Source: Candidatus Poribacteria bacterium
GTDB lineage: Bacteria; Poribacteria; WGA-4E; WGA-3G
Reading direction: 5' to 3'
Assembly: GCA_965198235.1 (NCBI GenBank)
Contig: OZ240248.1
Span: forward strand, 1,536,001 to 1,600,000
DNA: 64,000 bases
In this document: piece by piece, positions 6,147 through 63,198 of the stretch
Numbering within the stretch: position 1 is the stretch's first letter
How the letters are laid out: each line of letters starts with the position of its first letter
Position numbers and translations under genes: made by a program
Notes under the pieces: model-generated
The model's database searches: none
Told to the model about the DNA's origin: nothing
What the model saw: only the letters and a program-made list of their open reading frames with translations

Positions 6147-6306
6147 CCAATTAACCGAAAACCGGGGTCCCCACCCGTTACTGGGGAGGGGGTTTTTGCT
6201 TGGGGGTTTCTTTGATGGAACGAAGTGGAACGATTTAACCATCAACTCGACTCCGTTATAAATGTTAAAGCACGAGTTGATGGTTAACAGATTTAATAGT
6301 TAAAAA
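6147..6306. repeat. Composite intergenic repeat with 53-bp palindrome (6235-6287)
   Basis: GAACGAAGTGGAACGAT, TTTTTGCTTGGGG module and TTAACCATCAACTCG...CGAGTTGATGGTTAA, all recurring elsewhere in the window. Confidence 0.85.
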
Positions 6307-6430
6307 ACCTTCGCATCCAAATTTTTTGATGAAAATCTCCGTAAACTGCAACAAATCCTACGAAATAGCGTTTTTTATACAACCAAGATCAAGCGATTAG
6401 GATGATAGATTGGAACCGCACATACGAGAA

Positions 6431-7345
6431 ATGAAAATTCAACACTTAAGATATTGCCTCCTGATTTTCTATCTTAGCTTAGCGGTAGGTGTAGGCTGTA
6501 CGACACAAGAAACCCCTAACCCCGTAGCTCCTGAAGATAACACCGAGGTTGTTCTTAAAGACCATCGACTCACTGAGAATGAAACGTGGGATCCCGAAAA
6601 GACGTATATTGTACATGGTACATTGGAGATTCCAAAAGATATAATCCTCAACGTCCCACCCGGCACGACTGTTAAATTTGGACAAGATGCCCTTCTCACA
6701 GTGAGAGGCATTCTAAAGATCGGAACACCTTTACATCAAGACCAAGTGACTCGACTCGTGCATCTCACATCGGACAATGTCGGACCCACACCCGGCGATT
6801 GGAATGGTATCCTCTTCGATCACACGCACGATTTAGAGAGTTTTGTCAGAGGGGCGGTTATAGAGCATGCCACAGTCGCTCTCGACATTAAAACGACATC
6901 GCCAACTGTTGCAGAATCTACCCTTCGTCAAAATAAAACTGCTATCGCTTTAGACGGGAGCGACGCTCGCATTCAACACAACGACATTCTTGACAATCAT
7001 ATCGGGATCAACACTATTGGACGCCAGACACGTCCAAAAATTGAGAGAAACAATATCACCAAAAACGAGACCGGTATCTTCTGTGAAAATGTCCAGTCTA
7101 TTATTCAAAACAACAATCTCAACGCGAATATCTTCGCACTCCGTTTGAATGTAAAATTTGACTTGGTGGTAACCAACAATTGGTGGGGAAATTCAGATAC
7201 TACTGAGATAGCGAATGTAATTGTAGATGCCGCTGATCCCGTCCTGAATACCAAACAGATAGGCACAGTCTATTATGAACCGTTCGCGAATACTCGGATC
7301 GCCGATGCAGGCTTTCCATATCCAGCACTTCTCACCGATCTATAG
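6431..7345 (+). CDS. Lipoprotein with right-handed parallel beta-helix (pectin lyase/NosD-like)
   Basis: Lipobox-like VGVGC; PGDWNGI; repeated N-x-I-x-x-N-x-x-G/A-I units; NNWWG. Confidence 0.7.
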   Translation: MKIQHLRYCLLIFYLSLAVGVGCTTQETPNPVAPEDNTEVVLKDHRLTENETWDPEKTYIVHGTLEIPKDIILNVPPGTTVKFGQDALLTVRGILKIGTPLHQDQVTRLVHLTSDNVGPTPGDWNGILFDHTHDLESFVRGAVIEHATVALDIKTTSPTVAESTLRQNKTAIALDGSDARIQHNDILDNHIGINTIGRQTRPKIERNNITKNETGIFCENVQSIIQNNNLNANIFALRLNVKFDLVVTNNWWGNSDTTEIANVIVDAADPVLNTKQIGTVYYEPFANTRIADAGFPYPALLTDL

Positions 7346-7363
7346 CGGGAGTATTTCTAAAAA

Positions 7364-8701
7364 ATGAAAAACGAGCCGATCCCCAGTCACAGTCGCGACT
7401 TAACCAGAAACCTGCAAGTTAACCATCCACTCGACTCCGATACAAGACAGCAAAGCACGAGTGGATGGTTAAAACGGACGCAGCAGCCCAGAAGCGATCA
7501 ATTAAAAATTCTGAATGTCTCACAAAATCACTATGTCCGCGGCGGTTCTGATCGGTACTTTTTTACCCTCGCCGAGTTGTTGCAAAAACACGGACATGGA
7601 GTCATTCCGTTTACAGCGGCAGACCCTAATAATGAACCGTCTGAATGGGAACACTATTTCCCACGCAGTGCCGACTTCGAGCATCCCGGAGCAGGAGACT
7701 TATTGCGCTTTTTATATTCACACGATGCTGTTAAATCAATCCAACGGTTATTGAAAGACACAGACATCGACCTCGCGCATTTCCATATCTACTACGGTAA
7801 ACTCACTGCTTCAATCTTGGAAGTACTGAAAAAAGATGGAATTCCGCTCATCCAGACATTACACGAGTACAAGTTGACCTGCCCGGTTTATAGCCATCTC
7901 TCAAACGATGAGATTTGTGAGGCGTGTGAAGGTAAACACTTTTGGCGCGCGCTCCCGAAACGGTGCAACAGAGGTTCACTCGCACGTACCGCGTTGAGCG
8001 TTACGGAGTCTTATATATCACGCATGCTCGGGGCTGTTAAGAAATTCGACCATTTCATTTCTGTCTCTCATTTCCTTCGGAAAAAGATGATCTCGCACGG
8101 CATCCCGGAAGATAAAATCTCAACCGTTCATAACTTTGTTGATGTTTCTGACATCACACCGAGTTTCGACATGGGAGATTATGTCCTCTATTTTGGACGA
8201 GTGCATCAGAGCAAAGGGATTTTGACGTTGATGGAGGCAGCAGCACCGCTCAAACAAGTCCCGCTCTATATCGTCGGTGATGGTGAAGCGATGCCCGAAG
8301 TTCAACGGATAATCGAAGAAAACGAATGTGATCATATTCGCCTCCTCGGCTTTAAACAGGGTGATGAACTCCGAGAACTGATTCTGAATAGCATCTGTAC
8401 GGTCTTGCCGTCGGAGTGGTATGAAAACTGTCCGATGTCGATTTTAGAATCCTATGCTTACGGTAAACCGGTCATCGGTGCGGATATAGGTGGGATTCCA
8501 GAACTCATCGTAGACGGCGTTGATGGATTTCTCGTTCCGTCAGGCGGACAAGAGGCACTTCGAGAGCGTCTCCTATGGATTTCTGAACATAGGAACGAGG
8601 CTATAGAGATGGGGCGCATTGGTCGCCAGAAGATGGAAACAGAGTTTAATGCCGACATTCATTATGAAAGGATTATGAATGTCTATCAACAATTTTTGTA
8701 G
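7364..8701 (+). CDS. Glycosyltransferase family 4
   Basis: GGSDRY, PSEWYENCPMSILES, GKPVIGADIGGIPE; first ~45 aa are repeat-derived. Confidence 0.9.
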   Translation: MKNEPIPSHSRDLTRNLQVNHPLDSDTRQQSTSGWLKRTQQPRSDQLKILNVSQNHYVRGGSDRYFFTLAELLQKHGHGVIPFTAADPNNEPSEWEHYFPRSADFEHPGAGDLLRFLYSHDAVKSIQRLLKDTDIDLAHFHIYYGKLTASILEVLKKDGIPLIQTLHEYKLTCPVYSHLSNDEICEACEGKHFWRALPKRCNRGSLARTALSVTESYISRMLGAVKKFDHFISVSHFLRKKMISHGIPEDKISTVHNFVDVSDITPSFDMGDYVLYFGRVHQSKGILTLMEAAAPLKQVPLYIVGDGEAMPEVQRIIEENECDHIRLLGFKQGDELRELILNSICTVLPSEWYENCPMSILESYAYGKPVIGADIGGIPELIVDGVDGFLVPSGGQEALRERLLWISEHRNEAIEMGRIGRQKMETEFNADIHYERIMNVYQQFL

Positions 8702-8752
8702 TATTGAGATCCAAGAATCTCGGTTGTGTGCCGCAATTTTGAAGGAAAAGAA

Positions 8753-11376: not shown

Positions 11377-11511
11377 ATAGGACTTACGCATTTCCTCTTA
11401 AAGTCCCCCTGATAAGGGGGATTTAGGGGGTTAAATACAACGAAGTACTCTCACTGCAAGGCATTTTCAGCAAAATATGCCGATTCTCTGTTCAATTTGC
11501 GTAAGTCCTAT
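11377..11511. repeat. MITE-like element with 14-bp inverted ends
   Basis: ATAGGACTTACGCA (11377) / TGCGTAAGTCCTAT (11498); internal CCCCCTGATAAGGGGG hairpin. Confidence 0.7.
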
Positions 11512-11617
11512 AACAGTTGAAAAAACAATTCTATACCGGTTCCAAACCCCGTTGGAATTCACCAAACACCATCGTGGAACGTAGTGGAACGATGCCCAGG
11601 AGCCAATAGTTTAAAAA

Positions 11618-12613: not shown

Positions 12614-12614
12614 G

Positions 12615-13013
12615 TTTTAAACTATTGAATCTGGTCACCGTTTTTTAATTTATTGGCTCCTGGGCGTTGTTCCACTACGTTTCACAACGGTTTTTGGTTA
12701 GGATAGGCACAAGACCCACTGCTACGCCCCCTTTCAACATTAAGAGGGCGTTTAACTTTACCGAAAACCGGGGTTCCCACCCGTTACTGGGAAGGGATAC
12801 TGGGGAGCGGGTTTTTGCTTGGGGTGTTTTTGCTTGGGGTTTTTGATAGGGTGTTTCCCTGCGTATTGATAGGGGTTTTTGCTTGGGTGTTTCTGTGGAT
12901 TTCTGTGGATTTCTGTGGATTTCTGCGTATTTCTGCGTATTGATAGGGTATTTCTTCGGATTTTTTCGATGGAACGAAGTGGAACGATGAGCAAAAACTT
13001 AATAGGTAAAAAA
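12615..13013. repeat. Composite TIR repeat with low-complexity TTTTTGCTTGGGG/TTTTTGATAGGG/TTTCTGTGGA tract
   Basis: Left end TTTTAA..CTGGGCGTTGTTCCACTACGTTTCAC; right end GAACGAAGTGGAACGATG; tandem units at about 12808-12968. Confidence 0.85.
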
Positions 13014-14300
13014 ACGTTTTGGGTGATGATGATTACCCTTGTTGGAATGGGGTTGAGTCTTCTCGTCCGGGTCCTATTGATTCCAAAACGCTTCGGATTC
13101 AGCGATACAGCGGACGCACTCACTACCGCATTGACGGTCGTGCTGTTAGTAGATACGATTGTCCGAGAGGGTGCTAAATTCAGTCTTGTTCCAGTCTTCG
13201 TCACACGCCAGAAGGAGATGACTCGCACGGAATACCAACGTTTCATGAATGGGCTCCTAATTTTGTTGCTTAGTGTTGGCTTCGGGATTTTCATTCTGAT
13301 TGAACTTTTCGCACCGTGGATAGCAGGCGGGTTGTTATGGAAATCGACTGTTGATGTACAGAGGGCTACGACACTGTTGCGATTTTGTGCCCCGCTCCTT
13401 ATCTTCGGATGTGGTAGCACGGTCCTGGGTGCTTTCCTAAACAGCCAGCAGCGCTTTAAAACGGTTGCACTCCGAAACGCTCTACCCGCTGGCACCGCGG
13501 CGTTTATATTTCTGCTCTTATGGAATACACAGAGCCTCGAAAACTGGGTGGCGATGGCATACGCGGGGGGCTTTATCGCGTACTTTGGATGGTTGTGCAT
13601 CGGGGTATATCGGACGGGGCACCGGTATGAACTTACAGGCGTTTCTGTGGACACGCTGCGTTCTTTGAAAAACACGGTTACCCTACCAACTCTCGGCTTC
13701 GGAATACGGCAAATCGTAAACCGCTTACTGGTTGAGGTGTACCTTGTCTCACAACTTGGAAGTGGCGCTATTACGCTCTATAAATCTGCCTTCCAAATCT
13801 TTTCAGCACTACAGACACTCATCGGGATCAGTATCGCAACAACCGGCTTGCCCGATATGGCGATCCACGACGCGGCAAACGATAAAATAGAATTAGGGCG
13901 TACACTCAACCGAAACGCACGCACGGCTATAATCATCGGATTCCCGGTAACCCTGGTCCTGTTGATATTTCACGGAAGAATCAGTTGGCTCTTGTATGGG
14001 AAAGGGACAATCGATCAAACGTCAGTTGAGTTGATAGGACAACTCCTCTTTTGGCTCAGCACGGGAATGATATTCTCCTGTCTGATACCTGTGTTGAATG
14101 CTGGACTCTACGCCCAAAAGGCGTACCGCGCTGTTTTCGCAAATATGGTCACGATGGCAGCCCTTAATTTTCTACTGGCGTACGGATTAATCGAAACATG
14201 GTGGCTTCTATCTGTCGCGTTGTCTGTATCAATCACCGCGCTTCTGGCTGTTGGGAACCTGACGTATCTCCTCCGAAGAACACAGGTGTCTTGGTTTTAG
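12987..14300 (+). CDS. MurJ/MviN-like (MOP superfamily) flippase
   Basis: Many hydrophobic segments; FG.S..ADA, EGA..SLVPVF, LIGISIAT.LP; start uncertain (ATG lies in repeat end). Confidence 0.75.
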   Translation: MSKNLIGKKTFWVMMITLVGMGLSLLVRVLLIPKRFGFSDTADALTTALTVVLLVDTIVREGAKFSLVPVFVTRQKEMTRTEYQRFMNGLLILLLSVGFGIFILIELFAPWIAGGLLWKSTVDVQRATTLLRFCAPLLIFGCGSTVLGAFLNSQQRFKTVALRNALPAGTAAFIFLLLWNTQSLENWVAMAYAGGFIAYFGWLCIGVYRTGHRYELTGVSVDTLRSLKNTVTLPTLGFGIRQIVNRLLVEVYLVSQLGSGAITLYKSAFQIFSALQTLIGISIATTGLPDMAIHDAANDKIELGRTLNRNARTAIIIGFPVTLVLLIFHGRISWLLYGKGTIDQTSVELIGQLLFWLSTGMIFSCLIPVLNAGLYAQKAYRAVFANMVTMAALNFLLAYGLIETWWLLSVALSVSITALLAVGNLTYLLRRTQVSWF

Positions 14301-14583
14301 TTTTTTAATTATGGGCCTTTGATCGGCTTTCCATTTCATTCCAAGCCGGTTTTTAGTGAAGTCAGAAACCTTTGAACCCTTGAAGCGGGTTGGAATTAAC
14401 CAAAAACCACTGCGGAATGAAATTAGGTTTCCTTAAATGGCATAATTTTGCTTCGCATTGTCCCGCAAGCCTCTATAGGCTTGCGCAGAATGCTTTACAT
14501 TTGGAGCAGTTTAACCATCAACTCGACTCCGTTATAAATGTTAAAGTACGAGTTGATGGTTAACAGAGTTAATAGTTTAAAAA
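14301..14583. repeat. Composite intergenic repeat
   Basis: CCTTAAATGGCATAATTTT, CGCAAGCCTCTATAGGCTTGCG and 53-bp palindrome (14511-14563); ends TTTAAAAA immediately before ATG. Confidence 0.85.
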
Positions 14584-15543
14584 ATGCACAGATTCAATCG
14601 TTTAAAAAGTGTCGCGGACTATCGCTATCTCATTGTAGGGGGCACGACAAAGGCGGCAACAACGTCCCTGTTCACCTACTTAGCGGATCATCCTGCTATT
14701 TGTGCTGCCACCTACAAAGAGACTCGGTTTTTTCTCAGCAGCAACTATCCGCTCCCATCGAAATACCGATATAAAGGTGATGTCGAAGAATACAACCTTT
14801 TGTTTTCTGATGCTGATGAAACGCAGTTTCGGATGGAATCGACGCCTGACTATCTGTATTGTGAGGAAGCCTGTGAGCGGATTGCCACATTGCTACCCTA
14901 TGCAAAGTTAGTCTTCAGTCTCCGTGAACCGATTTCAAGGTTAATCTCTTGGTATCGATTTGCAAAGCAAATTGGCAAATTACCACAAACTTTGAGTTTC
15001 GACGCGTATGTTGAATCGCTTTTTGCCGCTATGAATCGCCATGAAGAGACAGAAGAACAGCACTTGCAAACACTCCAGCAGGGGTGTTATACTATCTATC
15101 TGGAGCATTATTTTAACCGATTCAGTCCAGAGCGTATCCATACCCTCTTTTATGAGGAACTCGCGACACAACCGGCGGATACTATGGCAAAATTGTGTGA
15201 CTTCGCTGGCATTGATGCCGGTTTTTATGGCGATTACGGGTTTAAAGTAACGAATCGTACCCAACAGATGCGAAATTCTGAGTTACATCGGAAGTATAGA
15301 GACTTTCGATTTCGATTGCGACAATGGACACATAACAAGCCGATTATTCATATCCCATTGCGGGCAATCAAACGAACAATTGAGCCGCTCTATCTCCGAT
15401 TGAACGCGCAGACGGATGAGAAGACTCAGATGTCAGAAGAGACGAGGCACCGTTTAATCGATTATTACACGCCGGATGTTCAGGCTCTCGGCGAATTGAT
15501 TGGGAAACCGATACCATGGAAAACTTGGGGAAAATCCAGTTGA
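14584..15543 (+). CDS. PAPS-dependent sulfotransferase
   Basis: IVGGTTKAATTSL (5'-PSB), ESTPDY, LREPISRLIS (3'-PB). Confidence 0.88.
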   Translation: MHRFNRLKSVADYRYLIVGGTTKAATTSLFTYLADHPAICAATYKETRFFLSSNYPLPSKYRYKGDVEEYNLLFSDADETQFRMESTPDYLYCEEACERIATLLPYAKLVFSLREPISRLISWYRFAKQIGKLPQTLSFDAYVESLFAAMNRHEETEEQHLQTLQQGCYTIYLEHYFNRFSPERIHTLFYEELATQPADTMAKLCDFAGIDAGFYGDYGFKVTNRTQQMRNSELHRKYRDFRFRLRQWTHNKPIIHIPLRAIKRTIEPLYLRLNAQTDEKTQMSEETRHRLIDYYTPDVQALGELIGKPIPWKTWGKSS

Positions 15544-16466
15544 TGATTGTTGGCGCACAGAAGGCGGGAACCTCTTCGCTCCTCCGCTACTTGGCGCAGC
15601 ATCCCGATATCCACACGCATGCACAACCAGAGATGACGTTCTTCCTGCAGGCGCGTGAATACACGCGGGGATATGAATGGGCGTTTGTGAAGTACTTTAC
15701 TGGAGAGAATACCCACAGCGATATTAAGGATAAACACCTTATCGCGAAGAATGCGATGGTGATGCATACACCGGAAGTCATGCAACGGATTTATGAACAC
15801 AATCCTGAGATACACCTCGTTGTTCTTCTGCGTGAGCCTGTGGCACGGGCGTATTCTGCCTATTGGTGGGCTCGGCGGATAGGTTGGGAGAACATCAAAA
15901 CTTATGAAGAGGCACTTGCTGCCGAGGAAGCACGTCTGAGCGAAGACTGGTTTAAATGGCGACAATGTGCCTATCAGTACAACGGCATCTATTATCCACA
16001 TGTCAAAAATTTGATAACCCAATTTGGTGTGAGTCACGTGCATTGCGTCTTAACTGAGGATTTAAAGGATAACGCTGAAGCTGTCTGTCAGCAACTCTTT
16101 GATCGTATAGGTGTCAGCACCGATTTCAGTCCGACAATAGGTGAACGGCATAACCAAGCCACGCTGCCGCGTTCCGAAAAATTCAACTTTCTCTTTACAC
16201 AATTTCTGGCATCTCACAATCCGCTGAGAAAAGTCATTCGGAAATTGCTGCCGGATGCCACCGCTTATAAGTTGAGAAAAGCCGTTCTGGATTGGAACGA
16301 CAAGCCCAAGGAGAATATGGATTTGAAGAAACGCCCAAGCAAAAACACCCCGCCTCCGCTCAATCCGCAGACGCGTGAGCACCAGATGGCGTATTTTAAG
16401 CCATTTAACGAACAATTGGCTGAATTATTAGGCAGAGATCTCTCTTCATGGAATAGCGGTTTTTAA
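15516..16466 (+). CDS. PAPS-dependent sulfotransferase
   Basis: IVGAQKAGTSSL, LREPVARAYS. Confidence 0.9.
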   Translation: MENLGKIQLMIVGAQKAGTSSLLRYLAQHPDIHTHAQPEMTFFLQAREYTRGYEWAFVKYFTGENTHSDIKDKHLIAKNAMVMHTPEVMQRIYEHNPEIHLVVLLREPVARAYSAYWWARRIGWENIKTYEEALAAEEARLSEDWFKWRQCAYQYNGIYYPHVKNLITQFGVSHVHCVLTEDLKDNAEAVCQQLFDRIGVSTDFSPTIGERHNQATLPRSEKFNFLFTQFLASHNPLRKVIRKLLPDATAYKLRKAVLDWNDKPKENMDLKKRPSKNTPPPLNPQTREHQMAYFKPFNEQLAELLGRDLSSWNSGF

Positions 16467-16580
16467 ACGATTGGCGATTGCGTGTCGTTCCACGATGGAT
16501 CTTGACAAAGTTCGGTGAAATTTATCAGAAACCTGCCTGAAACGAAGTGGAAGGCAGCGCGAAGGCCGATCATTAAAAAT

Positions 16581-19738: not shown

Positions 19739-19912
19739 TCGCGGATAGTAGGGGTTTGCTTGGGGTTTTTGCTTGGGGTTTTTGATAGGGTGTTTCTGCG
19801 GATTTCTCCGGGTCTTGTGCCTACCCTCTTAAAAACCGTACATCTTCCCAGTCGCGTCGAAATTCACCTCACACCATAGTGGAACGATGCCCAAGTTTTA
19901 ATAGTTAAAAGA

Positions 19913-46397: not shown

Positions 46398-46440
46398 CTC
46401 CGTCACCAATAAAATGGTGGGTGGTTCTCCATCAGTTAAA

Positions 46441-49809: not shown

Positions 49810-49895
49810 CGTTTTACCTCCTTTTTGCCTAAATCCAAAAGAATAATAGCCATTACTATTATACAATAGGAAAATGGTGATTTTCAACGTTAAAA

Positions 49896-52800
49896 CTACC
49901 GAATTCCAGTTTTCTCAAACATCAAATCCAAATACGATTTTTCATTGTTGAAAAGTTGACTGGTGGAACCGTCTTCTGTTTTTTCATGCCAGTTTAATCG
50001 GAAGATATTATATGCCAACATATTCTCTTCGACCCACTCAACGGATTGTCTGTTTCCTAATTTGGAACTATCGCGTAGCAGCAAAAACGAATTGAGATGG
50101 AATGTCCGACCCTGTTCAGCCTCTAACCGTTTTTCAAGAATAATAAGTGTTTTATCCTCAGATTTTCGAGCGAGTTTAACCTTTGGATGATTTTGGTAGT
50201 CAAGTGTCTCGTCGTCGATAATACCACGCTGCCCTTTCGGATCGATGAAGAGGATGTGGGTTACCGTTTGTTCTGTATCTACTATCCACAACACAAAATC
50301 GGGATAGTAACTGCCCGAATCATTTTCCAAATAGATACCAATCTTCTGCACATTCCGCATCAGATAGAACTCATATCGTTTATTCCTGCCGTAGGATCGC
50401 TTAATATAATTTGTCAAGTCTTCAACGAATTTTCTTTCACCTGCATTTAGTCTATCTGGTGAGACTTTGACTTCGTTTGGTTCGTTCTCTCTGATATCCT
50501 TCGGGTCTAATAGGAGTGGGTTGTAAATATGCCGATGATGTAGTTCTAAAAATAATTGCAATTCTCTCTGGATCTGTACTTCCGGGTTTTTACGTCGCCC
50601 CTTTGATATATCTCTTTCCTTTTCTGCTTCCTCAATTTTTGCAAGAAATTCTTCATATTCATCACGATCTTTAAATTCCTTTGTTACTGTGTATTCATAG
50701 ATGAAGTCATCCTGGTTCAAAGGTTCATAAATATAGTTAGCACGATTGATATGGGCGTTGATGCGATTTCGTAGTTTACCAGTGACATCAATTACAACTT
50801 GGCGATTGAGCCTATCTGTCCACGCGATTTTATTTTTGCCCGCTTTCCGGTAACGAATTCCCCCAACAAGTGCCAGAAAATCTGAAATAGCGGGTTCGCT
50901 GTTGCCCTCATGATAAAGTTGCAGATGATTTTTCTCCGCCTCGCGGCGGATGATAGTAGCAAGTCTTGCCCGGTTCAGATAACAAGAATATTCTTTGTTA
51001 TATTTCTGCAGATATTCGTAGATATTCGGTGCCTCCTTCTCTTTGTCTGTTCGGTAATCCAACATAATTTCTTGCCAATTGTTGATAACTCCATGTTTTT
51101 CAGTGTTATCTTCAAAATAGGTATAATTAATTGATTTGTCACGGCTGAACACCACACACTTGATTGAGTTATCGCTGCTACCGATTTGCTTAAAAATGGG
51201 CAATTTGCTCTTATATTCCTCGAAGTGAATGGTTGTACCATTATCCACTTTAAAAAAAGTTGAATTTACATTAATTTTAAAGGTGTGATAAAGCCGAATG
51301 CCGCCCATGTGGACTTCCTTAAGAAAATGTTCAAGGTAGCTTCGCTGTAAGCTGAAAACGGTCAGCGTTTCCAATCGTCGAATCTCACTTTCTCTATCTC
51401 TTTTACGTGGAAGTGGGTAGGGGTAGTCTGGATCTTGCTCAATATACCGACGTTTTCCATCGCCACCTTTTCCACCTAACCGAACGCCGCGTCCGAAGAT
51501 CTGTATGATCAAGTTGCCTTTAGAACTTCCCAAGTTAATCAAATCAATTACGGAGAGACGATAAGAATTCCATCCTTCCGCAAACTTACGACTTCCAATA
51601 AGTATGTTTATCGGGCTGGTTTCGTTGTCGAGGTTTTCAAAATGGAGGTTTGGATCGGCGATTGATTCAACGCGTGTTTCAATGCAGTCGTTTTCAATGC
51701 TGTTGTAAAAACTCGCAGCGTCCCCAATGTTGATCATTCCCCACTTTTCGCCATCTCCATAAGAGAGAAGCAATTCACTATTGTTGTCTGGATTGCGTGC
51801 AACGACTAAGCGCCCAATAATATCACTACCAAAAATGGATCTGAATTTTTGGCGTTCCGCCTCGCTCAGTGCCGCAAGGTAATTGAGAACTTTCTGGATG
51901 TCAGAGACTTCATCGTTATCGTTTTTGCCTTCGTCCTTCGGATTTTCGACTGTATGTCCCATAAATGCCATCAAGGGACGATGCACAGTTAGATCAATGT
52001 CTTGCGATTCGTCGTCACGAACTCTTTTGAATGTTTGTAACTTTTTCTCCATCACCCAGAAACACTCGTCTAAGTTGTCTTTAATTTCTTGGTCGGATTC
52101 AGTAGCCACTGCATCTGCAGCAATCGGTTTGAAATAATGGTCTTTACCGTACCCATCGCTATAGAAGCGAGCATAATCGTACCGGTAGATGATTGCGCTA
52201 TCATATTCGTCCGCCAGTTCTTTAGCGATGTTGTGGAAGGTGGCTGAATATTCAAATAGGAAGGAATTTCCCACGTTGAGACGGTTCCGAAGTTCTCTGA
52301 ATTTGCCAGATTGCTGGCTTGTTAAGCCGATGTGTGCTTCGTCTACTAAAATGAGTCGGCGAATCTCTCCTGCATCCGGTAAACGGAAATAGTCGTCCTC
52401 CTTCTGCAAAAGCCCCTGCGTAGTGTCAATTGTAAGTTCAATCCGATTGCTATAGGTTTTGTTGAGTTCACGGACGTATGGCTCTAACTCGCGCTCATGC
52501 TGCTTAATCAGGTTTGCCAAGGGGGTCGTTAAGAAGATTTGAAGACGAGCATTGTCTTTTTTACAAAAATGGTGTAGGTATTGGAGGATATTAAGATGCA
52601 TGATGTGGGTTTTCCCACTGCCTGTCGCCATCCAATACGCCAGCATCCGTTTGTCTTCTTGTTCACTGCTTGTGTCAAATCCTTCTGACTGTTGTCGATC
52701 GGCAAAAAAACATTCGGTGAAAAGTAGAGCCAACACCTGATAGTAACGGAGTTTAAAAGCCTGCCTTGTCAGATAATTGTAATCTTCTAAGAAATCCTGA

Positions 52801-52940
52801 ATTCGCTCTAACGATTCAACAGGCAGTTGCAACGCTTGTTCAGGGTCATACAACTGAATTATTTCCTTTATCCCGTCATTTCGGATGTCAATCCCATTTT
52901 CGGTTAGGATTTTTGTTTCGTAGTCTTGATAAAGTGCCAT
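49896..52940 (-). CDS. res: Type III R-M restriction subunit (Res)
   Basis: MATGSGKT, LVDEAH, YSAT, QIFGRGVR; C-terminal YPDF..IDPK nuclease. Confidence 0.9.
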   Translation of the reverse strand: MALYQDYETKILTENGIDIRNDGIKEIIQLYDPEQALQLPVESLERIQDFLEDYNYLTRQAFKLRYYQVLALLFTECFFADRQQSEGFDTSSEQEDKRMLAYWMATGSGKTHIMHLNILQYLHHFCKKDNARLQIFLTTPLANLIKQHERELEPYVRELNKTYSNRIELTIDTTQGLLQKEDDYFRLPDAGEIRRLILVDEAHIGLTSQQSGKFRELRNRLNVGNSFLFEYSATFHNIAKELADEYDSAIIYRYDYARFYSDGYGKDHYFKPIAADAVATESDQEIKDNLDECFWVMEKKLQTFKRVRDDESQDIDLTVHRPLMAFMGHTVENPKDEGKNDNDEVSDIQKVLNYLAALSEAERQKFRSIFGSDIIGRLVVARNPDNNSELLLSYGDGEKWGMINIGDAASFYNSIENDCIETRVESIADPNLHFENLDNETSPINILIGSRKFAEGWNSYRLSVIDLINLGSSKGNLIIQIFGRGVRLGGKGGDGKRRYIEQDPDYPYPLPRKRDRESEIRRLETLTVFSLQRSYLEHFLKEVHMGGIRLYHTFKINVNSTFFKVDNGTTIHFEEYKSKLPIFKQIGSSDNSIKCVVFSRDKSINYTYFEDNTEKHGVINNWQEIMLDYRTDKEKEAPNIYEYLQKYNKEYSCYLNRARLATIIRREAEKNHLQLYHEGNSEPAISDFLALVGGIRYRKAGKNKIAWTDRLNRQVVIDVTGKLRNRINAHINRANYIYEPLNQDDFIYEYTVTKEFKDRDEYEEFLAKIEEAEKERDISKGRRKNPEVQIQRELQLFLELHHRHIYNPLLLDPKDIRENEPNEVKVSPDRLNAGERKFVEDLTNYIKRSYGRNKRYEFYLMRNVQKIGIYLENDSGSYYPDFVLWIVDTEQTVTHILFIDPKGQRGIIDDETLDYQNHPKVKLARKSEDKTLIILEKRLEAEQGRTFHLNSFLLLRDSSKLGNRQSVEWVEENMLAYNIFRLNWHEKTEDGSTSQLFNNEKSYLDLMFEKTGIR

Positions 52941-52997
52941 TAGTTTCTCTAAACATCTGTGGAAGTAATATGCATTTGTGTTCCTATTATTTTTTTG

Positions 52998-55900
52998 CTA
53001 CGCTTCAAGAGTGTCCCACACCGCTCCTGTGTCAAAATCCGATGTTGAGATGAGATGAATCTGTCGCAGCTCCGAATTCTCAAGCAATGCTTGCTGATGC
53101 ACATCACAGTTAACATCTAGCTGTGTGACACCCGCTAACTGTTCATCTGCGAGAATTTCCAATAACTGAGGCGTATCGTCCTCCTCGGTTACATTGCGGA
53201 ATACAACCAGTCGCGTACCACTTTGAACAACTCGGTATACCTGATCATTTAAATCAAACCGCAAACGACGCTGAACCGGGAGCCCTTTGAGATAGCAATA
53301 AGTTTCCAAGACATCTACGTAGTCTTCTCTGCTATCCTTACCATACGTAATCCGATTAGAGAAGGGGTCGCGCATATCCATCATCAGCCGAGTCTGCTGT
53401 TCCTCGGGCCGATAGAGATATTTGACGGGGAGTTCTGTTTTCGTATTATAATTTGGAGGTGATGTCGTGAGGTTGTTGAGGACATCCTCATACTGTTCCA
53501 ACTGTTGATATTTAACAATGCCGACGGTGCCATCAATTTTCTTTTTTGCGTCCGGTTTGCCATCTCTCCAATTTGCGGAGAACATGACGCGCCGGATCCG
53601 CTCCTTCAAGGTGCTATCAAAGTAGTCTCCGATCTCAACAAGGATAAATTTGCGGTTGCCGTTATCGATTTTGTTGAGGTTAAGGATGGCATGCCCCGTT
53701 GTGCCACTACCGGCAAAGAAGTCAAGCGTAATTCCTTTACCATCATTTGTAACTGCCCAAACGAACTTTTCATATAAGTCAATAGGATGAGAGTATGGGA
53801 AATTTAACCCTAATGCGTCCAATTGCATTTTGCCTCTTTCGCCTGAGGGCAAGACTGAGGATAACTCGCCGACCAGATAGTTTTTCAAATAAATTTTGAG
53901 TCGAGGTTGTTTGGTTTCATCGGTACCGAAAATAATGCGGCCTTCATCCAAAAATTTCTGCATGTTTTCTGGAGTTCTACTCCATCCAGTCGCTGGAACT
54001 GGACAAGATTTACGAGTGATTGGATGAATCAATGGTTCGTGGAATTTAGGGTTGGTCAGCAATGCCGGGGCTCCTATACTGACATCTGAAAAAACCTGTC
54101 CCGCATCGTCAATTTTTGAATAAGCCCGTTCTCCACCACTCAACTCAGGTTTGTTCGTAATCCAATTTCTAAATTCTTTGCGGCACTCCTCTGTGACACT
54201 GCTATACTGTTTTATTAATGAGGCAGCCTTTCTAAGAATCGCTTCACGGTTGGTTGGTATAGCTTTGAGTTTTACGGTTCCTTTAGAATAGCACACAACA
54301 TATTCATGTTGTGTGGCTATCGTATTTGTTCCGAAAACAGGGTTTCTTTTGTCCCAAACAATAGTCCCCTGATTTTTCATCTGCATGGTGCTGAATACTT
54401 GAAATAGGTTTTCATATTCGTTCTCGTCAATATGGCAAAGGATGCAGCTATCTGGTGCCATTAACTGTTCGGCGAGGGACAACCGGTTTTCCATCATCGT
54501 TAGCCAACTGGAATGCTGATAATTGTTTTTATAGAGGAAGCCGCTTGTGTTGGTGTTGTAAGGCGGATCAATGTGGACACACCTTATGGAGTTTCGGTAT
54601 TTTTCCATAAGTAGGTCCAACGCCTGAGAGTTTTCACTGTTGAGTAACACGCCATCAATTTGCGATTCTAAATCTTTGAATAGGGCAAGAATCTCATCAA
54701 CAAAACCTTCCTCAAAATGCTGTGTGTCCAATGGTAGTGTTGGATATAATCCTTCAAGCAACGGCAGTTGCTCTGTAATATCGATACCGAAGGTTTCACG
54801 CCAGTCGGCAAGTTGTGCCTCGTTTTCCAGAATCTGTGAGATGAGTGCTTCCCGTTGGACTGTGTCATCTTTTGTTGCCTCTGAAATCTTACCTACAGAG
54901 ATGAGATAGTCGGTAGAAACAACCTTTTTCTTCATCAAGAATAGCTGCTTCTGAAATGTCTCCACAGCAACAAGCAGTGCAATTACTTCGTCTGTAACGC
55001 TGCGGAATGCTGTTGCTATAGCGAATGCCGGGTTTTCAGAACTGAGATTCAAAAGCGTATCCAAATCGCTGAGGATGATGTTCTGGATATAGCGGCGTTG
55101 CTCGGTTTTCAGAAATTTATCCAAATCTTTATGGATAAAGTAGTCTGAATCCATGCCCACGAAGAAGGTGTTCAGGTTTTTGTCAAGGGTGTGGAACCGT
55201 TGCACTATAAGGCGTTTTTCTAATACTGCTTGCCGTTCTGTATTGTTTTTGCCGAGTCCTTTGAAATCGGGATGGCTTACCAATTTCCCCGCGTAACTTG
55301 ACAAGTCCAAGTGCAACGCGTTGATACCTTGCAATCTGCCGTTCTGCACCTTGTCGTAAGTGTTCGCAAGGTCCTTAAAGATGGGTTTGCCCTGTTCCTC
55401 CCCTTTCTTAGGACGTTCGTGGAGATAGATGTCTACATCATCCGTTTCACTGAATATCTGAGTGCACATCTCACGGTATATCTCAACTTTTGGCGTTGAG
55501 GTTTCTGCCAAGTGAAGGATAACGCGCCATGTCTGTTCGGTATCGTCGGGTTTGGGAGGATCAATCCTACCAAAGCGATAATGTTTGAAATCGTCACGGT
55601 TATTGTTTTGTGCAATACTGGAACTTGCTTCTCCCTCTAACCGATACTCAATCCGTTTGTCTTCAACTTCAAAAGCAACACTGTTGAACCCTGTCGCCGT
55701 TTTAACGTAGTAGCTATCGCGACATTTCCAGTGGAAAAGTGTATCTGTCCCGTTGTAGTCTGCCTCATCGGGGTAGTCCACCTTATAGAGTGCAGTACTC
55801 CTGTCATTATAGCCGAAGTCACCATCTCGGTAGTATCCTTCAAAAAAACTATGAACATGATTATAGACGCGGAAAGCGAGTTTGGATTTGAGTTCGTCCG

Positions 55901-56261
55901 GGTCCGTTTCCAATGGAGCGATAAGTTCTTCCTTATCTTCGGTCTGGAGAAAATCTATCAGTTGTTGAGAGTTCTCGGCGATGTTTTCAAGCCAATCTCT
56001 TTGTCTACGCCCGCCTTCCTCAGCGACGAATTCCCTAACCTTGGTGAGTTGGCTATCGTAGAGTGTCTTAGTGACTTCTACGAGTGCTTCATCTACTATA
56101 GTTGTTAACTTTTCGTCAATGAATTGATTAACCTCATCGCGCTTAATTTTGAGGATACGGAAGATACCGAAGTCGAGGTCGTTATGTGCGAAGTGAAACA
56201 TATCGCGAAGTTTCTCGCGGAGGGTGTTGAGTGCTTCGGTTGTTGAGTTTGATTCGGGCAT
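52998..56261 (-). CDS. mod: Type III R-M methyltransferase (Mod), large form
   Basis: DLDFGIFRI N-terminus, DYFIHKDL, IDPPYNT, DFFAGSGTTG. Confidence 0.9.
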   Translation of the reverse strand: MPESNSTTEALNTLREKLRDMFHFAHNDLDFGIFRILKIKRDEVNQFIDEKLTTIVDEALVEVTKTLYDSQLTKVREFVAEEGGRRQRDWLENIAENSQQLIDFLQTEDKEELIAPLETDPDELKSKLAFRVYNHVHSFFEGYYRDGDFGYNDRSTALYKVDYPDEADYNGTDTLFHWKCRDSYYVKTATGFNSVAFEVEDKRIEYRLEGEASSSIAQNNNRDDFKHYRFGRIDPPKPDDTEQTWRVILHLAETSTPKVEIYREMCTQIFSETDDVDIYLHERPKKGEEQGKPIFKDLANTYDKVQNGRLQGINALHLDLSSYAGKLVSHPDFKGLGKNNTERQAVLEKRLIVQRFHTLDKNLNTFFVGMDSDYFIHKDLDKFLKTEQRRYIQNIILSDLDTLLNLSSENPAFAIATAFRSVTDEVIALLVAVETFQKQLFLMKKKVVSTDYLISVGKISEATKDDTVQREALISQILENEAQLADWRETFGIDITEQLPLLEGLYPTLPLDTQHFEEGFVDEILALFKDLESQIDGVLLNSENSQALDLLMEKYRNSIRCVHIDPPYNTNTSGFLYKNNYQHSSWLTMMENRLSLAEQLMAPDSCILCHIDENEYENLFQVFSTMQMKNQGTIVWDKRNPVFGTNTIATQHEYVVCYSKGTVKLKAIPTNREAILRKAASLIKQYSSVTEECRKEFRNWITNKPELSGGERAYSKIDDAGQVFSDVSIGAPALLTNPKFHEPLIHPITRKSCPVPATGWSRTPENMQKFLDEGRIIFGTDETKQPRLKIYLKNYLVGELSSVLPSGERGKMQLDALGLNFPYSHPIDLYEKFVWAVTNDGKGITLDFFAGSGTTGHAILNLNKIDNGNRKFILVEIGDYFDSTLKERIRRVMFSANWRDGKPDAKKKIDGTVGIVKYQQLEQYEDVLNNLTTSPPNYNTKTELPVKYLYRPEEQQTRLMMDMRDPFSNRITYGKDSREDYVDVLETYCYLKGLPVQRRLRFDLNDQVYRVVQSGTRLVVFRNVTEEDDTPQLLEILADEQLAGVTQLDVNCDVHQQALLENSELRQIHLISTSDFDTGAVWDTLEA

Positions 56262-59213: not shown

Positions 59214-59222
59214 GGAAAAATC

Positions 59223-61492: not shown

Positions 61493-61494
61493 CG

Positions 61495-61830
61495 ATGAAA
61501 CACATTTTTATAGCAGTCAGCCATCAGCAGTCAGCGATCAGCAAGAGGGTATCATTTCACCAGAAAATCTCTTTCCTGAAGGTTTCCGAGAACCGACAGC
61601 CGACAGCCATTTTCATTCTCTTCTGCATCGCGATCGCCCTTTTTCAGATGACAGGATGTACCGTAACTTTCACGCAGAGTGATACGCTCCAGTTCAGTTT
61701 ATCCGAACCGGTAGAGGAAACGATGTCGATCGTTGCCGAGTTTGAAGCAGGCGAGGCTGACAGTGTTGCCGGTGATGTGACACAGAAAGCAGGGAGTGTC
61801 TGTGCAGGTGGGGCGTGTATTATCTATTAA
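61495..61830 (+). CDS. Small putative lipoprotein ending CAGGACIIY, with in-frame repeat insertion
   Basis: Coupled to DUF362 gene; hydrophobic stretch + TGC; repeat at 61511-61608. Confidence 0.55.
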   Translation: MKHIFIAVSHQQSAISKRVSFHQKISFLKVSENRQPTAIFILFCIAIALFQMTGCTVTFTQSDTLQFSLSEPVEETMSIVAEFEAGEADSVAGDVTQKAGSVCAGGACIIY

Positions 61831-61919
61831 CAGTCTGTCGTCTGCGTTGAGGAAGTCGCAAAGAGAAAGCGGGCTTATTAGCCCGCTTGTGGTAAGATTC
61901 GGTTTGAATGATAACGCTA

Positions 61920-62507
61920 CTAATCCGATTTGATTTTGCCCCATGTTGTCGTTAGATTCCCAGCCGGGTCAACGGGAAGCACACCTTCTTCGAGGAAGAT
62001 CGTCCACATGAGGACCGGGTCTCCGATAACCTCATCAATACCGAGTAACTCCACTGTTCCTTTCGGATACGGTTCATTGGATTTGTAGATGTGGTACTCG
62101 GTTGGGGCGTGTGGGGCATCTAACATGAGGATTTCGCCGGTATCCGTATACCCCTTTGTAAACCAGCCTTTCGGATCCTGTCCGCGGTCCTCCGGTGATG
62201 TATGTCGGCTATCCCATGCTTGGTAGACATAAGCCGGTCGGTCGATGTCAAACGTAAGTCGGTAGTCCTGTCCGCCGGGACAGTCCGCTGACGTGGAAAC
62301 TTGCGTTAAGCCAAGAAATTCTTTCGGAATATTCGTAATCGTATAGTCTCTATCGTGGAAAAATTTTCCACCTTCTTCCAACTCGGTGGCTTGATAGGCA
62401 CCACCCTTGTTATCCTTTATTTCTGTGACTTCTACATTCTCAGCGGCGAAGGCGGTTAACGCAACTGCAATACACAGTGCGGCGATACAAACATAAGCCA
62501 GTTTCAT
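61920..62507 (-). CDS. Secreted hypothetical protein with NLTTTWGKIK tail
   Basis: Signal peptide; AAGGAG SD; C-terminal motif shared with 58407. Confidence 0.8.
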   Translation of the reverse strand: MKLAYVCIAALCIAVALTAFAAENVEVTEIKDNKGGAYQATELEEGGKFFHDRDYTITNIPKEFLGLTQVSTSADCPGGQDYRLTFDIDRPAYVYQAWDSRHTSPEDRGQDPKGWFTKGYTDTGEILMLDAPHAPTEYHIYKSNEPYPKGTVELLGIDEVIGDPVLMWTIFLEEGVLPVDPAGNLTTTWGKIKSD

Positions 62508-62611
62508 TTTCAGTACTCCTTTTCATTTTGTTTGCAGTCTCGTAGAGACTTGAAAAAAAATAACATTTGTGTAATACTTAAATTGTATAACAATTTTTTT
62601 TAATTTGCAAA

Positions 62612-63198
62612 TCTTCTAACTATCAAAATCTGAGCGTCGTTTTTTTAACTATTAACTCTGGTCATTGTTCCACTTCGTTTCACGAAGGTTTCTGGTGAAT
62701 TGAGAAACCTTTGAGCACCTAAAGCAGGTTGAAGTTCACTGAAAACCACTGCGAAACGAAATTATGCCTTAAATGGCATAATTTGTCTTTGCTTTACATT
62801 TAGAGCAGTTTAACTATCAACTCGACTCCGTTATAGATGTTAAAGCACGAGTGTTTTTGCTTGGGGTTTTTGCTTGGGTGTTTCTGCGGATTTCTTCGAT
62901 GGTTAACAGATTCCCATAGTTAGAAAATCGTTTCACGAGGGTTTCTGGTTAATTCCAACTGCCTTAAAGACGAGAGAGTACCAACCCTACGTGAACTCGA
63001 CCAAAAACTTGTCCGAAACGAAGTGAAGGGGTGTTTTTGATAGGGGTGTTTTTGCTTGGGGTTTTTGATAGGGGTTTTTGATAGGGCATTTCTGCGGATT
63101 TCCCTGCGTATTGATAGGGGTTTTTGATAGGGTATTTCTGTGGATTTCCCTGCGTATTGCTTGGGTGTTTCTTTGCTCAGAGGCCCATGGTTAGAAAA
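62612..63198. repeat. Large composite repeat with low-complexity tracts
   Basis: TIR ends, interrupted 53-bp palindrome, TTTTTGATAGGGG/TTTTTGCTTGGGG arrays. Confidence 0.85.

Follow-up and report, generated by a model that had tools for sequence, protein, structure and literature searches.

The window, a 64,000-nucleotide stretch of a Candidatus Poribacteria chromosome, carries genes that include a NAD-dependent epimerase gene, lpxI, lpxA, lpxC-fabZ, mltG, ubiB and ruvX and, at the gene borders, copies of a small hairpin-bearing repeat. The host is a sponge-symbiont bacterium. The repeat occurs in about 400 copies in this genome, with its A-rich end against gene start codons or, in flipped copies, supplying stop codons. 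Its unit is an end module of approximately 61 nt consisting of a lead-in, a 6-bp stem, a loop and a tail, and modules are found singly, as an inverted pair of arms spaced at about 155 bp, or joined to other modules. At all 11 start sites listed by the first-pass annotation (11618, 14584, 16581, 19913, 21344, 24752, 29027, 41523, 42482, 45026 and, on the minus strand, 37495) the A-rich terminus directly adjoins an ATG, and the reading frame opened there runs for 118-562 codons. Inspection of sequence context bore out the seven listed stop sites as well; the stop codon lies inside the repeat terminus at 16466, 20929, 44882 and 35758, and the T-rich terminus begins on the next base after the stop at 12613, 14300 and 37636.

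On the plus strand, single end modules lie flush with ATG 11618 (11557-11617, HMM E-value 2.6e-17; the ATG opens a 331-codon ORF, the epimerase), ATG 19913 (19852-19912, 5'-truncated), ATG 21344 (21284-21343) and ATG 24752 (24691-24751, E-value 1.7e-13, model positions 2-64). In five congeners other repeats dock at ATG 19913, and G014 has a 9-nt native spacer at the 21344 site. Most copies lie within the range first assigned to the family, 6147-63198. A further copy outside it (3448-3508, plus strand, E-value 1.3e-12) is flush with GTG 3509, which opens 852 codons and is likely the true start of the Pnkp gene (Pfam PNKP_ligase). A common terminus detected by the repeat search (D6; 63157-63198, plus strand) directly precedes an in-frame ATG at 63199. 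The flipped module at 20915-20975 (minus strand) encodes the last codons and TAA of gene 19913-20929, the G014 ortholog of which has a different end. Also on the minus strand are a partial terminus that begins right behind stop 12613 and, beyond it, a complete flipped module at 12642-12702 (together 12614-12702), and a partial flipped module at 44205-44265 (E-value 3.3e-5). The plus-strand module at 35712-35772 holds in its terminus the TGA of mltG, a minus-strand gene (stop 35758).

Larger arrangements occupy many of the remaining spacers. A 283-bp composite (14301-14583) is the whole spacer from TAG 14298-14300 to ATG 14584; it contains a flipped module (14301-14361), and its sub-modules are found separately in congeners. 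At 16460-16580 a flipped terminus remnant supplies the TAA of gene 15516-16466 and is followed by a module (16520-16580) flush with ATG 16581. The flipped composite at 28714-29026 ends in a module (28928-28988), after which a second, partial terminus is flush with ATG 29027. Another composite (32884-33167) separates lpxA from lpxI; its arm at 32884-32944 stops short of the lpxI GTG, 25 nt upstream of it, and the native Shine-Dalgarno sequence is therefore kept. Two-armed elements lie at 24479-24630 (HMM arms 24479-24539 and 24570-24630), at 36853-37001 upstream of mltG (HMM; empty alleles in L007 and L008), and at 34092-34247, a 156-bp element that follows the lpxC-fabZ stop, precedes the lpxA Shine-Dalgarno sequence and is absent from all five fetched congeners. 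The element at 37496-37635 leaves no other sequence between the ubiB stop (37636) and the ruvX ATG (37495, minus strand). An approximately 100-nt element whose interior is different (41423-41522) is flush with both TAA 41420-41422 and ATG 41523; at the G014 counterpart the two genes overlap (ATGA). The mosaic spacer at 42282-42481 has a flipped CCGCAAGG-family end after the stop and the common terminus flush with ATG 42482, the element at 44876-45025, with another interior hairpin, provides TAA 44880-44882 and abuts ATG 45026, and a composite at 62640-62927 combines a flipped module (62641-62701) with an inserted A/C-rich cassette.

The repeat family is real by three measures. Its core, CTGGGCANCGTTCCACTNCGTTTCAC, has 9 window matches at up to 3 mismatches and none in 100 shuffles; the repeat search of the window returned 10 right-end (D1) and 9 left-end (D2) copies; and nhmmer, run with a profile of 18 copies from the window, matched 23 modules in the window and 395 in the 5.17-Mb genome (E≤1e-3). 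Genome-wide, 78 inverted module pairs lie no more than 700 bp apart, with a mode near 160 bp, and account for 156 of 389 modules. These data support a dispersed, mosaic, inverted-end intergenic repeat. That a single family sits at all sites is true of the terminal 12-25 nt, which are common, and not always of the interior. Matches at 24752 and 37495 are near full model length, yet have a GGGGTTTTTGCTTGGG-type stretch in the 45 nt before the start; the match at 42482 is partial (model 29-64); and the leaders at 14584, 41523 and 45026 have no HMM match. No Rfam family matched the repeat and our literature search found no description of it, in keeping with the initial failure to recognize a named family.

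Within the module, the lead-in is short, conserved and ends in AACC, the loop is invariant and purine-rich (GNA / AY-GWA-RT / GGA), and the A-rich tail ends AT-N-N-TT-W-AAAA. The stem sequence is free to vary while complementarity is kept. Among the 18 window copies a standard pair is found in 93.1% of stem cells, against 75.1% in shuffles (0/500 reach the observed value) and 13-55% when the partner is slid, and 26 cells are changed on both sides. For 306 distinct genome copies the figure is 97.1%, compared with a shuffle mean of 70.9% (maximum 72.6%), and 235 of 273 copies keep all six pairs. In the tail, by contrast, the minority fraction is about 0.3 in columns 39-49. The covariation could partly reflect some 15-20 old genus-wide subfamilies rather than selection on every copy. 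The two arms of one element never had a common stem (0/52). RNA folding energies of six leaders were not better than those of shuffles (z +0.81 to -1.56), and simple scans detected neither a sigma-70-type promoter nor an intrinsic terminator on the modules.

Termini are enriched at gene borders relative to 30,320 local positions 20-300 nt away. Termini lie at most 2 nt from a start codon opening at least 100 codons in 118 of 379 cases (background 2.9%), and abut or supply the stop codon of an ORF of at least 100 codons in 107 of 379 (background 1.3%); over half are thus flush on a start or a stop codon. Model positions 62-64 are an ATG in 100 of the 379 copies, and 83 of these open at least 100 codons. 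Conservation across copies ends with the A-run, before the ATG: the A-run is the repeat's own sequence and the ATG is host sequence. Judging from ORF length and ortholog alignment, the flush ATGs are probably starts in use. A-rich second codons are enriched in flush genes, AAA accounting for 22.6% versus 11.3%.

The proposal that the repeat has replaced native translation-initiation regions is borne out by orthologs in five congeners and by the LpxA loci. The organism uses Shine-Dalgarno sequences: its 16S rRNA ends in CACCTCCTT, and of the 3,515 starts in a crude set, 41% have an SD core, and G peaks at -9 to -11. Start codons preceded by a Shine-Dalgarno sequence in one species bear a repeat terminus in another. 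Thus ruvX has a native Shine-Dalgarno sequence (AAAAGAGGTCGGTT|ATG) in G071 and G018 and a repeat terminus flush on its start in the window, G014, G064 and G006; the lpxI start region reads GGGGAGCGAAAG..GTG in certain species and, in 14 loci, CCGCAAGG..AAAA-ATG. At G000:C1:1605473 and 1785714, native spacers of 22 and 26 nt, each with an SD-like core, were replaced from stop to start. Across six genomes, different repeat families sit on one start codon at 16581, 19913, 21344, 42482 and 45026, and at one site two different families inserted independently into the GAGAGG-to-ATG interval.

The strict motif occurs 174 times here. In the 44 other genomes sampled from the genus its count is 0-52, with 43 of them having it; three of 32 sister-genus genomes have 1-2 occurrences, and none of 44 genomes from other genera has any. 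It is therefore essentially genus-level and at least threefold more abundant here than in the sampled congeners. End modules are nearly absent from 70 orthologous LpxA loci. Comparison between species, using five congeners, revealed insertion polymorphism: the comparison with G071, colinear for about 720 kb, gave 25 filled/empty events, of which 13 are specific to G000 and the other 12 to G071. A MITE reading, as first suggested, predicts a classical target-site duplication; instead, 1-30 nt of native sequence were replaced in 23 of the 25 comparisons, and the other two show 0 nt and a 2-nt overlap, so that apart from the latter no target duplication was seen. Other indels in the same region have overlaps of 1-11 nt. 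An SD-like core is present in 10 of the 25 replaced stretches. The earlier interpretation is thus partly supported: mosaic repeat and initiation-region replacement stand, and a classical MITE does not. Control of mRNA processing or stability, also proposed there, is hypothetical; the RNA runs at hand are in contig form and show neither RNA ends nor strand. Each G000-specific insertion shares no more than 73-96% identity with its best other copy, and for this reason none is demonstrably recent.

As the first-pass annotation stated, the window has no cognate transposase, and neither does the genome among the transposases examined, which comprised those present in more than one copy. None is flanked by the same ends. 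The genome has about 35 TnpB genes and six Y1 genes, namely three IS605 copies, with end hairpins unrelated to the modules, and three RAYT-like genes, flanked by another REP. The DDE_Tnp_1, rve and DDE_3 insertion sequences have different ends. The four inverted module pairs with a spacing of 700-3000 bp have ordinary genes between them.

How, then, did the modules come to lie on codons? The least probable account is target-site bias, in which an ordinary MITE entered pre-existing TTAAAA/TTTTAA tracts at gene borders, the runs being host sequence and the flush position without function. The termini do read as an A/T palindrome (TTTTTTAA...TTAAAAAA), two families at one site have T-run and A-run flanks in common, and 315 genes have a TTAAAA-N0-3-ATG context, 224 of them away from detected modules. 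However, the empty alleles lack the runs, a trend seen in 25/25 events. One-armed insertions bring the A-run without a T-run on the other side, as 20 nt upstream of gene 27997 in G071, G018 and G064 (empty alleles ...TTTGGA|TTGCG), and a further insertion at G064:798 supports the A-run as element sequence. Repeated upstream sequence is found in 110 of the 224 other contexts and the CCGCAAGG family tail in 78. Because empty alleles lack the A-run and many other contexts lie on sister families, TTAAAA frequency at gene borders does not explain the bias. Enzyme-free template switching or gene conversion, with start/stop microhomology and whole stop-to-start spacers copied from a donor, is also very improbable. 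It would account for base-precise replacement of whole short spacers without duplication, for mosaic architecture with tails partly duplicated in tandem, and for the first three codons at G000:C1:1195903, which differ from the empty allele. Yet for 12 of the 13 G000-specific events (the 13th is without another copy) the best other copy ceases to be similar at the element boundary in 8 and 1-9 nt beyond it in 4, and an invariant loop in 395 copies calls for a driver.

Derivation from REPIN/RAYT or IS200/IS605 (PATE), with a resident Y1 HUH transposase recognizing single-stranded DNA hairpins, seems improbable. The frequent inverted pairing of hairpin units, the absent target duplication and the resident Y1 and TnpB genes fit such an origin, but the flanks of the RAYT-like genes and the IS605 ends do not. 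Within 1.5 kb of the Y1 genes there is a single module, some 1.3 kb away, the flank after the terminus is not limited to ATGA, and a variable stem with a fixed loop is the opposite of the REP pattern. A cis-regulatory RNA regulon is unlikely, although it deserves more weight; selection would keep immobile copies at each gene, and hairpin and purine loop would bind one RNA-binding protein controlling downstream translation or stability. Strong stem covariation with invariant loop letters, the fixed distance from the start codon and the AAA second codons are in its favor. Against it, modules are flipped after stops about as often as they precede starts (107 vs 118 of 379), and RNA of flipped copies would present a pyrimidine-rich loop, the complement of the purine one. 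Congeners differ in copy number from 0 to 174, orthologs carry the module in one species and none or another family in the next, and the functions of the downstream genes are unrelated.

Known systems resemble the repeat in part. Integron attC sites are imperfect palindromes bounded by ...AAC and GTT..., often with a stop codon in the first box, and the following gene begins directly behind the last box. The likeness to the modules in these three features is only formal: no integron integrase scored above cut-off in this genome, and the elements lie between conserved housekeeping genes chromosome-wide, not in one array. The Neisseria Correia element makes a TA target duplication. Compared with MITEs, the present elements have no target duplication (25 events) and no parent insertion sequence with the same ends among those examined, one-armed units insert alone, and termini are base-precise on codons. 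MITEs and Correia elements, for which promoters and an IHF site are mentioned, are likewise short, non-coding, inverted-ended, present in hundreds of copies, co-located with genes and insertion-polymorphic (Delihas 2011, PMC3184786). REP/BIME/REPIN sequences with RAYT share hairpin units, inverted doublets, mosaic clusters with other motifs and genus-level specificity (in part PMC3184786); here, however, the RAYT-like genes stand beside another REP, the stem varies and the loop does not, and the arms differ in stem. Neisseria REP2 (CREN) and Borrelia plasmid IR-A/IR-B are also dispersed and intergenic, with two internal stem-loops, directly upstream of unrelated genes and fused to the translation start. 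REP2, as described in that source, is set apart by its 26 copies, against about 400 here, by lacking terminal inverted repeats, and by its own promoter, ribosome-binding site and ATG (Delihas 2011, PMC3184786). Our repeat lacks a Shine-Dalgarno sequence in its terminus at -5 to -15, the ATG belongs to the host, and modules occur flipped at stop codons and in inverted two-armed forms. The TAACTGA heptamer direct repeats of Beggiatoaceae, for which a translation role was proposed, are described as short and tandem, without hairpin or inverted ends (MacGregor 2015, PMC4679880). The present genome has 57 sets of NAACTGA heptamer repeats, a separate family.

We therefore lean towards a genus-specific superfamily of small, non-coding, non-autonomous mobile "intergenic cassettes" whose terminus is a Shine-Dalgarno-independent start region. 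The copying enzyme would be encoded elsewhere and would not be a recognizable transposase with matching ends. The hairpin and its invariant loop may be a handle for a protein, either this enzyme or an RNA- or single-stranded DNA-binding factor, which would be why stems stay paired while tails drift. In the 5' leaders, the A-rich, Shine-Dalgarno-less terminus would itself be the translation initiation region, with initiation through an A-rich unstructured leader in an organism that otherwise uses Shine-Dalgarno sequences. In the flipped orientation the T-run and TAA would end the upstream reading frame. With one orientation able to initiate and the other to terminate, insertion at gene borders would be tolerated or even favored.

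The window (G000:C1:1536001-1600000, in contig 1 of its own genome, G000) belongs to a 5.17-Mb assembly of two contigs with 48% G+C. Its genes are those of an ordinary chromosome: lpxC-fabZ, lpxA, lpxI, mltG (YceG), ruvX and ubiB, a polysaccharide cluster with sulfotransferases and glycosyltransferases, a restriction-modification island and the Hen1/Pnkp pair for RNA repair. LpxA loci orthologous to that of the window, with identity of up to 98%, occur in sponge-associated Candidatus Poribacteria MAGs. The inverted-end repeat family described in the first-pass annotation is real: its quoted core matched the window nine times with at most three mismatches and never in 100 shuffles, and repeat finding in the window returned 10 right-end and 9 left-end copies. 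The profile HMM proposed there, built from 18 window copies, gave 23 matches in the window and 395 in the genome; the densest of 52 100-kb genome bins, with 26 HMM matches, is the one that holds most of the window. All 11 start sites named in that annotation are as described, the last base of the terminus directly preceding an ATG that opens 118-562 codons, and so are all seven stop sites, with the stop codon lying within the terminus itself at four. The common end attributed to these sites holds over the terminal 12-25 nt but not in the interior at 14584, 41523, 45026 and 42482; the leaders at 14584, 41523 and 45026 have no HMM match and that at 42482 has only a partial one.

Copies do populate the reported range of 6147 to 63198, but one further copy lies outside it, at 3448-3508, flush with a GTG (3509) that opens 852 codons. 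This GTG is probably the true start of Pnkp, and the annotated start, set by the ORF finder at TTG 3371 upstream of the end module, is probably wrong. The ATG at 37552 of ruvX falls inside a hairpin loop, and the start of this gene is likely to be 37495 instead. The repeat superfamily is real, strongly non-random and genus-specific.

Read toward its outer end, the end module has first a lead-in finishing in AACC. A 6-bp stem follows, its two strands enclosing a loop, and after the stem come a G, 10 variable nucleotides and the terminus AT-N-N-TT-W-AAAA. The loop is laid out as G-N-A, A-Y, a G-W-A triloop, R-T and G-G-A. Among 311 full-length copies, at most 3% vary at the loop letters G20, A22, A23, G25, A27, T29, G30, G31 and A32 or at the terminus letters A50, T51, T55 and A58-60; the stem columns are variable in 19-59%. 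Conservation stops at the end of the A-run, and an ATG follows in 100/379 copies, 83 of these 100 opening at least 100 codons; the A-run is therefore the repeat's own and the ATG comes from the host. We counted 415 strict loop motifs in the genome, 326 of them with at least five of six stem pairs. Since these 326 hairpins carry differing tails (229 short, 68 longer and ending in CCGCAAGG plus an A-run, and 29 variants), the hairpin is a head shared by two or more families, whose A-rich ends are similar.

The hairpin is backed by covariation. For the 18 window copies, 93.1% of cells pair in the named structure versus 75.1% in shuffles, none of 500 of which reached 93.1%; sliding the stem partner left 13-55% paired, and six of eight pairs have changes on both sides. 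Over 306 distinct genome copies, 97.1% of cells pair (shuffle mean 70.9%, maximum 72.6%). All six stem pairs are kept in 235/273 copies, and the minority fraction of the neighbouring tail columns is about 0.3. Part of this signal may stem from old subfamilies, as the stem exists in no fewer than 16 fully complementary versions, which are found again in other species. Folding six leaders as RNA gave minimum free energies no better than those of shuffles, and the covarying hairpin was the minimum-free-energy structure in only some of them.

Two inverted arms of about 61 nt make up a two-armed element, mostly 123-366 bp between HMM ends with a mode of 160-162. The genome contains 78 inverted module pairs no more than 700 bp apart, and for 233 of 389 modules no partner was detected. 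The arms of one element are about 66% alike; an identical stem in both arms was found in none of 52 elements (random expectation 7.6%), and the hairpin parts are less alike within an element than between re-paired arms (0.645 versus 0.686, 499 of 500 re-pairings being higher), which suggests that each arm folds by itself. Even so, the predicted RNA fold of whole elements pairs the two ends with each other in 47/52. A functional long stem should make the arm tails co-evolve, and we rejected this: they are 0.666 alike within an element versus 0.656 when re-paired, and 100 of 500 re-pairings reach 0.666.

Placement of the repeat is tied to the borders of genes. Termini lie within 2 nt of a start codon opening at least 100 codons in 118/379 cases, versus a rate of 2.9% at 20-300 nt away, and 107/379 abut or contain the stop of an ORF of at least 100 codons, versus 1.3% at that distance. 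When the stop window was narrowed to -12 to +60 nt, 131 copies counted as stop-adjacent, and 54 of them use the TAA inside the T-run/TTAAC end. No more than 100-133 of the 379 copies include an ATG, which in nearly all of them starts a gene. The annotation had raised the alternative that this bias reflects the frequency of TTAAAA at gene borders. The configuration TTAAAA-N0-3-ATG does occur at 315 genes, 91 at detected modules and 224 elsewhere, of which 110 have repeated upstream sequence and 78 the CCGCAAGG tail. Frequency does not explain the bias, because empty alleles lack the tract and many of the other TTAAAA-ATG contexts are themselves on repeats.

The organism otherwise relies on Shine-Dalgarno (SD) sequences. 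Its 16S rRNA 3' end is CACCTCCTT, and crude start calling gave 3,515 starts, 41% of which have an SD core; G peaks at -9 to -11. The terminus of the repeat has no SD core at -5 to -15; an AGGAG lies about 20 nt upstream. The second codon is AAA in 22.6% of flush genes versus 11.3% of controls, and their first 6 nt are identical more often (20 pairs; controls averaged 4.3 and reached 14 at most). These start-side biases fit selection for a start that is open and A-rich, and they also fit a target preference. A scan for the sigma-70 consensus assigned the modules no site (21 in 20 kb versus 27.9 expected), and a simple intrinsic-terminator scan placed nothing on them. The region is present in four metatranscriptome runs; their assembled RNA-library contigs, which carry neither ends nor strand and do not prove transcription, cover all 30 bins in X1 and break at repeats.

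Sub-modules of a 283-bp composite were found in 17/18 genomes of the same genus and in 1/12 genomes of the order outside that genus. G000 has 174 occurrences of the strict hairpin pattern, and 44 other genomes sampled from the genus have 0-52 (present in 43/44); in the sister genus 3/32 genomes have it, with one or two occurrences each, and in other genera 0/44. The reversed pattern, used as a control, occurred once across 121 genomes. The window is syntenic in five congeners, and the sequence upstream of the same start codons varies among the species. Start codon 19913 is preceded by three different repeat families, and start codon 21344 by four, with one genome having a 9-nt native spacer. 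At ruvX, AAAAGAGGTCGGTT directly before the ATG is kept in two genomes and a repeat terminus is flush in four; at lpxI, native loci of the form GGGGAG...GTG stand against 14 loci with a CCGCAAGG-family tail and ATG. Upstream of gene 27997, at a distance of 20 nt, stands a one-armed insertion of about 100 nt, and the empty allele lacks its A-run. Between a GAGAGG and an ATG, the congener G018 has a 155-bp two-armed element (L084:13144-13300, L084 being the fetched locus), G014 has a 96-bp element of another family, and G071 has GAGAGGCGTT directly before the ATG.

Comparison with G071 over about 720 colinear kb yielded 59 indels of 40-650 nt, including 25 with the hairpin or the CCGCAAGG motif. 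Of these 25 events, 23 have an empty allele with 1-30 nt that are absent from the filled one; one of the remaining two has 0 nt and the other a 2-nt overlap. Overlaps of 1-11 nt, such as duplicating transposons would leave, are present in 13 of the other 34 indels. An SD-like core is present in 10/25 of the replaced stretches, and at G000:C1:1605473 and 1785714 the whole native spacers, 22 and 26 nt, were replaced from stop to start. The proposal that native initiation regions have been replaced is supported by these comparisons. Each G000-specific insertion has a best other copy that is 73-96% identical, and among the 12 events having one, 8 show no similarity beyond the element and hence no co-transfer of donor flanks. 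The DNA unit is mobile or at least copied, its A-run is element-borne, its placement is flush with codons, native Shine-Dalgarno sequences are lost and its hairpin is structurally constrained. At one G000-specific insertion, G000:C1:1195903-1196080, the first three codons of the downstream gene differ as well (ATGGATAAT versus ATGAACGAC in the empty G071 allele); in G071 the two genes abut as TAAATG.

We searched genome-wide for a transposase or RAYT flanked by the same ends, which the annotation had reported missing from the window, and none of those examined fits. The genome does encode six Y1 genes, three in IS605 copies and three RAYT-like. Mobilization by IS200/IS605 (as PATEs) is contradicted by the left and right end hairpins of the three IS605 copies, which are unrelated to the modules, and none of the approximately 35 TnpB genes fits as the engine. 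A RAYT/REPIN system would match the hairpin units in inverted doublets, but the REP next to the three RAYT-like genes is a different one. These genes (G000:C1:606918-607262, 1898775-1899119 and 3853757-3854101) each have their own REP hairpins, and the one at 606 kb is accompanied by a four-fold tandem array of about 130-bp units. The DDE_Tnp_1, rve and DDE_3 insertion sequences present in two or more copies have ends that differ from the modules. The genome also has a nine-copy family of 201-aa ORFs that matches nothing in Pfam. Four inverted pairs 700-3000 bp apart were candidates for an autonomous element and enclose ordinary genes, with no transposase. An integron was rejected on a best TIGR02249 match of 46.9 bits versus a cut-off of 265. 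ATG flanks the terminus in 100/379 copies, and the flank varies in the others; left flanks of one-armed insertions are few in number. Two readings of the hairpin itself were dropped by eye: the loop letters misfit a K-turn layout, and the AAC of the would-be -35 box of an ECF promoter sits in variable stem columns.

The comparison of the family to MITEs and BIMEs holds in part. Like MITEs, which leave a target-site duplication, it is short, non-coding and present in many copies with terminal inverted repeats, but it lacks that duplication, and no autonomous element with the same ends turned up among the multi-copy insertion sequences and long inverted pairs examined. No flanking sequence is common to four copies of one 161-bp subfamily. 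Like BIME/REP sequences it has hairpin units in inverted doublets, but no RAYT flanked by the same units. MITEs and BIMEs share its anatomy and lack its codon-flush placement. Consistent with the annotation's failure to recognise a named family, the 64-kb window had 0 Rfam matches at gathering score, a search of 32850-34300 gave only chance-level matches (E 0.54 and 0.82), and we found no literature on intergenic repeats or miniature inverted-repeats of Poribacteria. Neisseria REP2 and Borrelia IR are leader repeats joined to translation starts; passages of Delihas (2011, PMC3184786) describe them as having their own RBS and ATG, tens of copies and no inverted ends. Like REP2, the Poribacteria repeat stands directly upstream of genes at the translation start (118/379 termini flush); unlike REP2, it has no ribosome-binding site or ATG of its own. 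Compared with MITEs, BIMEs and REP2, its base-precise docking at starts and stops, spacer replacement without duplication and invariant-loop hairpin are unusual.

A further palindromic spacer family in this genome has arms of NAACTGA-type heptamer direct repeats and ends just before Shine-Dalgarno sequences or start codons. G000 has 57 such sets, 19 of them within 40 nt of the start of a long ORF, and the congener loci L008, L011 and L013 have them upstream of lpxA. The heptamers resemble the TAACTGA repeats of Beggiatoaceae, which passages of MacGregor (2015, PMC4679880) place just upstream of starts in RBS-poor spacers. The window also has a separate MITE at 11380-11535, whose inverted ends (TAGGACTTACGCA...) correspond to those of a DDE_Tnp_1 insertion sequence with four copies in the genome; relatives have insertions of it with apparent duplications. 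Tandem G/T-rich cassettes of GGGGTTTTTGCTTGGGG and TTTTTGATAGGG units at 12800-12900, 19755-19817 and 62843-63159 sit inside other repeat modules, splitting for example the hairpin at 62820-62900. At 46437-46641 the CCGCAAGG-family leader before the 2-oxoacid dehydrogenase E2 gene is tandemly duplicated (107 nt, 89% identity), and congeners have tandem partial tails at this start codon. In the 817-nt gap between a TonB-like gene and lpxI, an unlisted 77-codon ORF (31740-31970, plus strand) has an in-frame TGA in a C-x-x-U motif; because it matches Pfam Rdx (SelW-like) at E 1.2e-24 when TGA is read as U, it is a selenoprotein candidate. The stretch 48144-56261 is a repeat-free island with G+C down to 41-44%, missing from most of the five congeners, with an RRXRR-domain ORF (IscB/IsrB-type, five genome copies), a 1014-aa helicase and a 1087-aa DNA methylase.

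From the sequence comparisons, the terminus may serve as a Shine-Dalgarno-independent initiation region and, when flipped, as a stop; the hairpin is a putative protein handle, and a copying enzyme may be encoded at an unlinked place. A broader model, in which self-propagating cassettes combine translational coupling with a protein handle, we consider improbable as a whole. Copying would proceed without target duplication or a recognisable transposase, targeting the few bases from a stop to the next start and doing away with the native Shine-Dalgarno sequence. Where a two-armed copy lies in polycistronic RNA, its U-run behind the stop would pair with its A-run before the start, a pairing predicted in 47/52 elements. 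The downstream start site would then be opened only by ribosomes that terminate on the gene before it, so that the element itself would couple translation of the two genes. A putative host protein that also drives copying would use the invariant purine loop as its handle.

Base-precise insertion at start and stop codons without duplication or a visible transposase is a mechanistic puzzle. It has a practical side, in that gene callers mis-set starts and stops at the repeats, as is probable for Pnkp (3509) and ruvX (37495) in the window. If the terminus drives initiation, several per cent of the symbiont's genes would be translated from a mobile, Shine-Dalgarno-less leader, essential genes among them (ruvX, lpxI in congeners, Pnkp). 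This uncultivated, Shine-Dalgarno-using symbiont would then be a natural experiment on Shine-Dalgarno-independent initiation and on mobile DNA rewiring the borders of genes.
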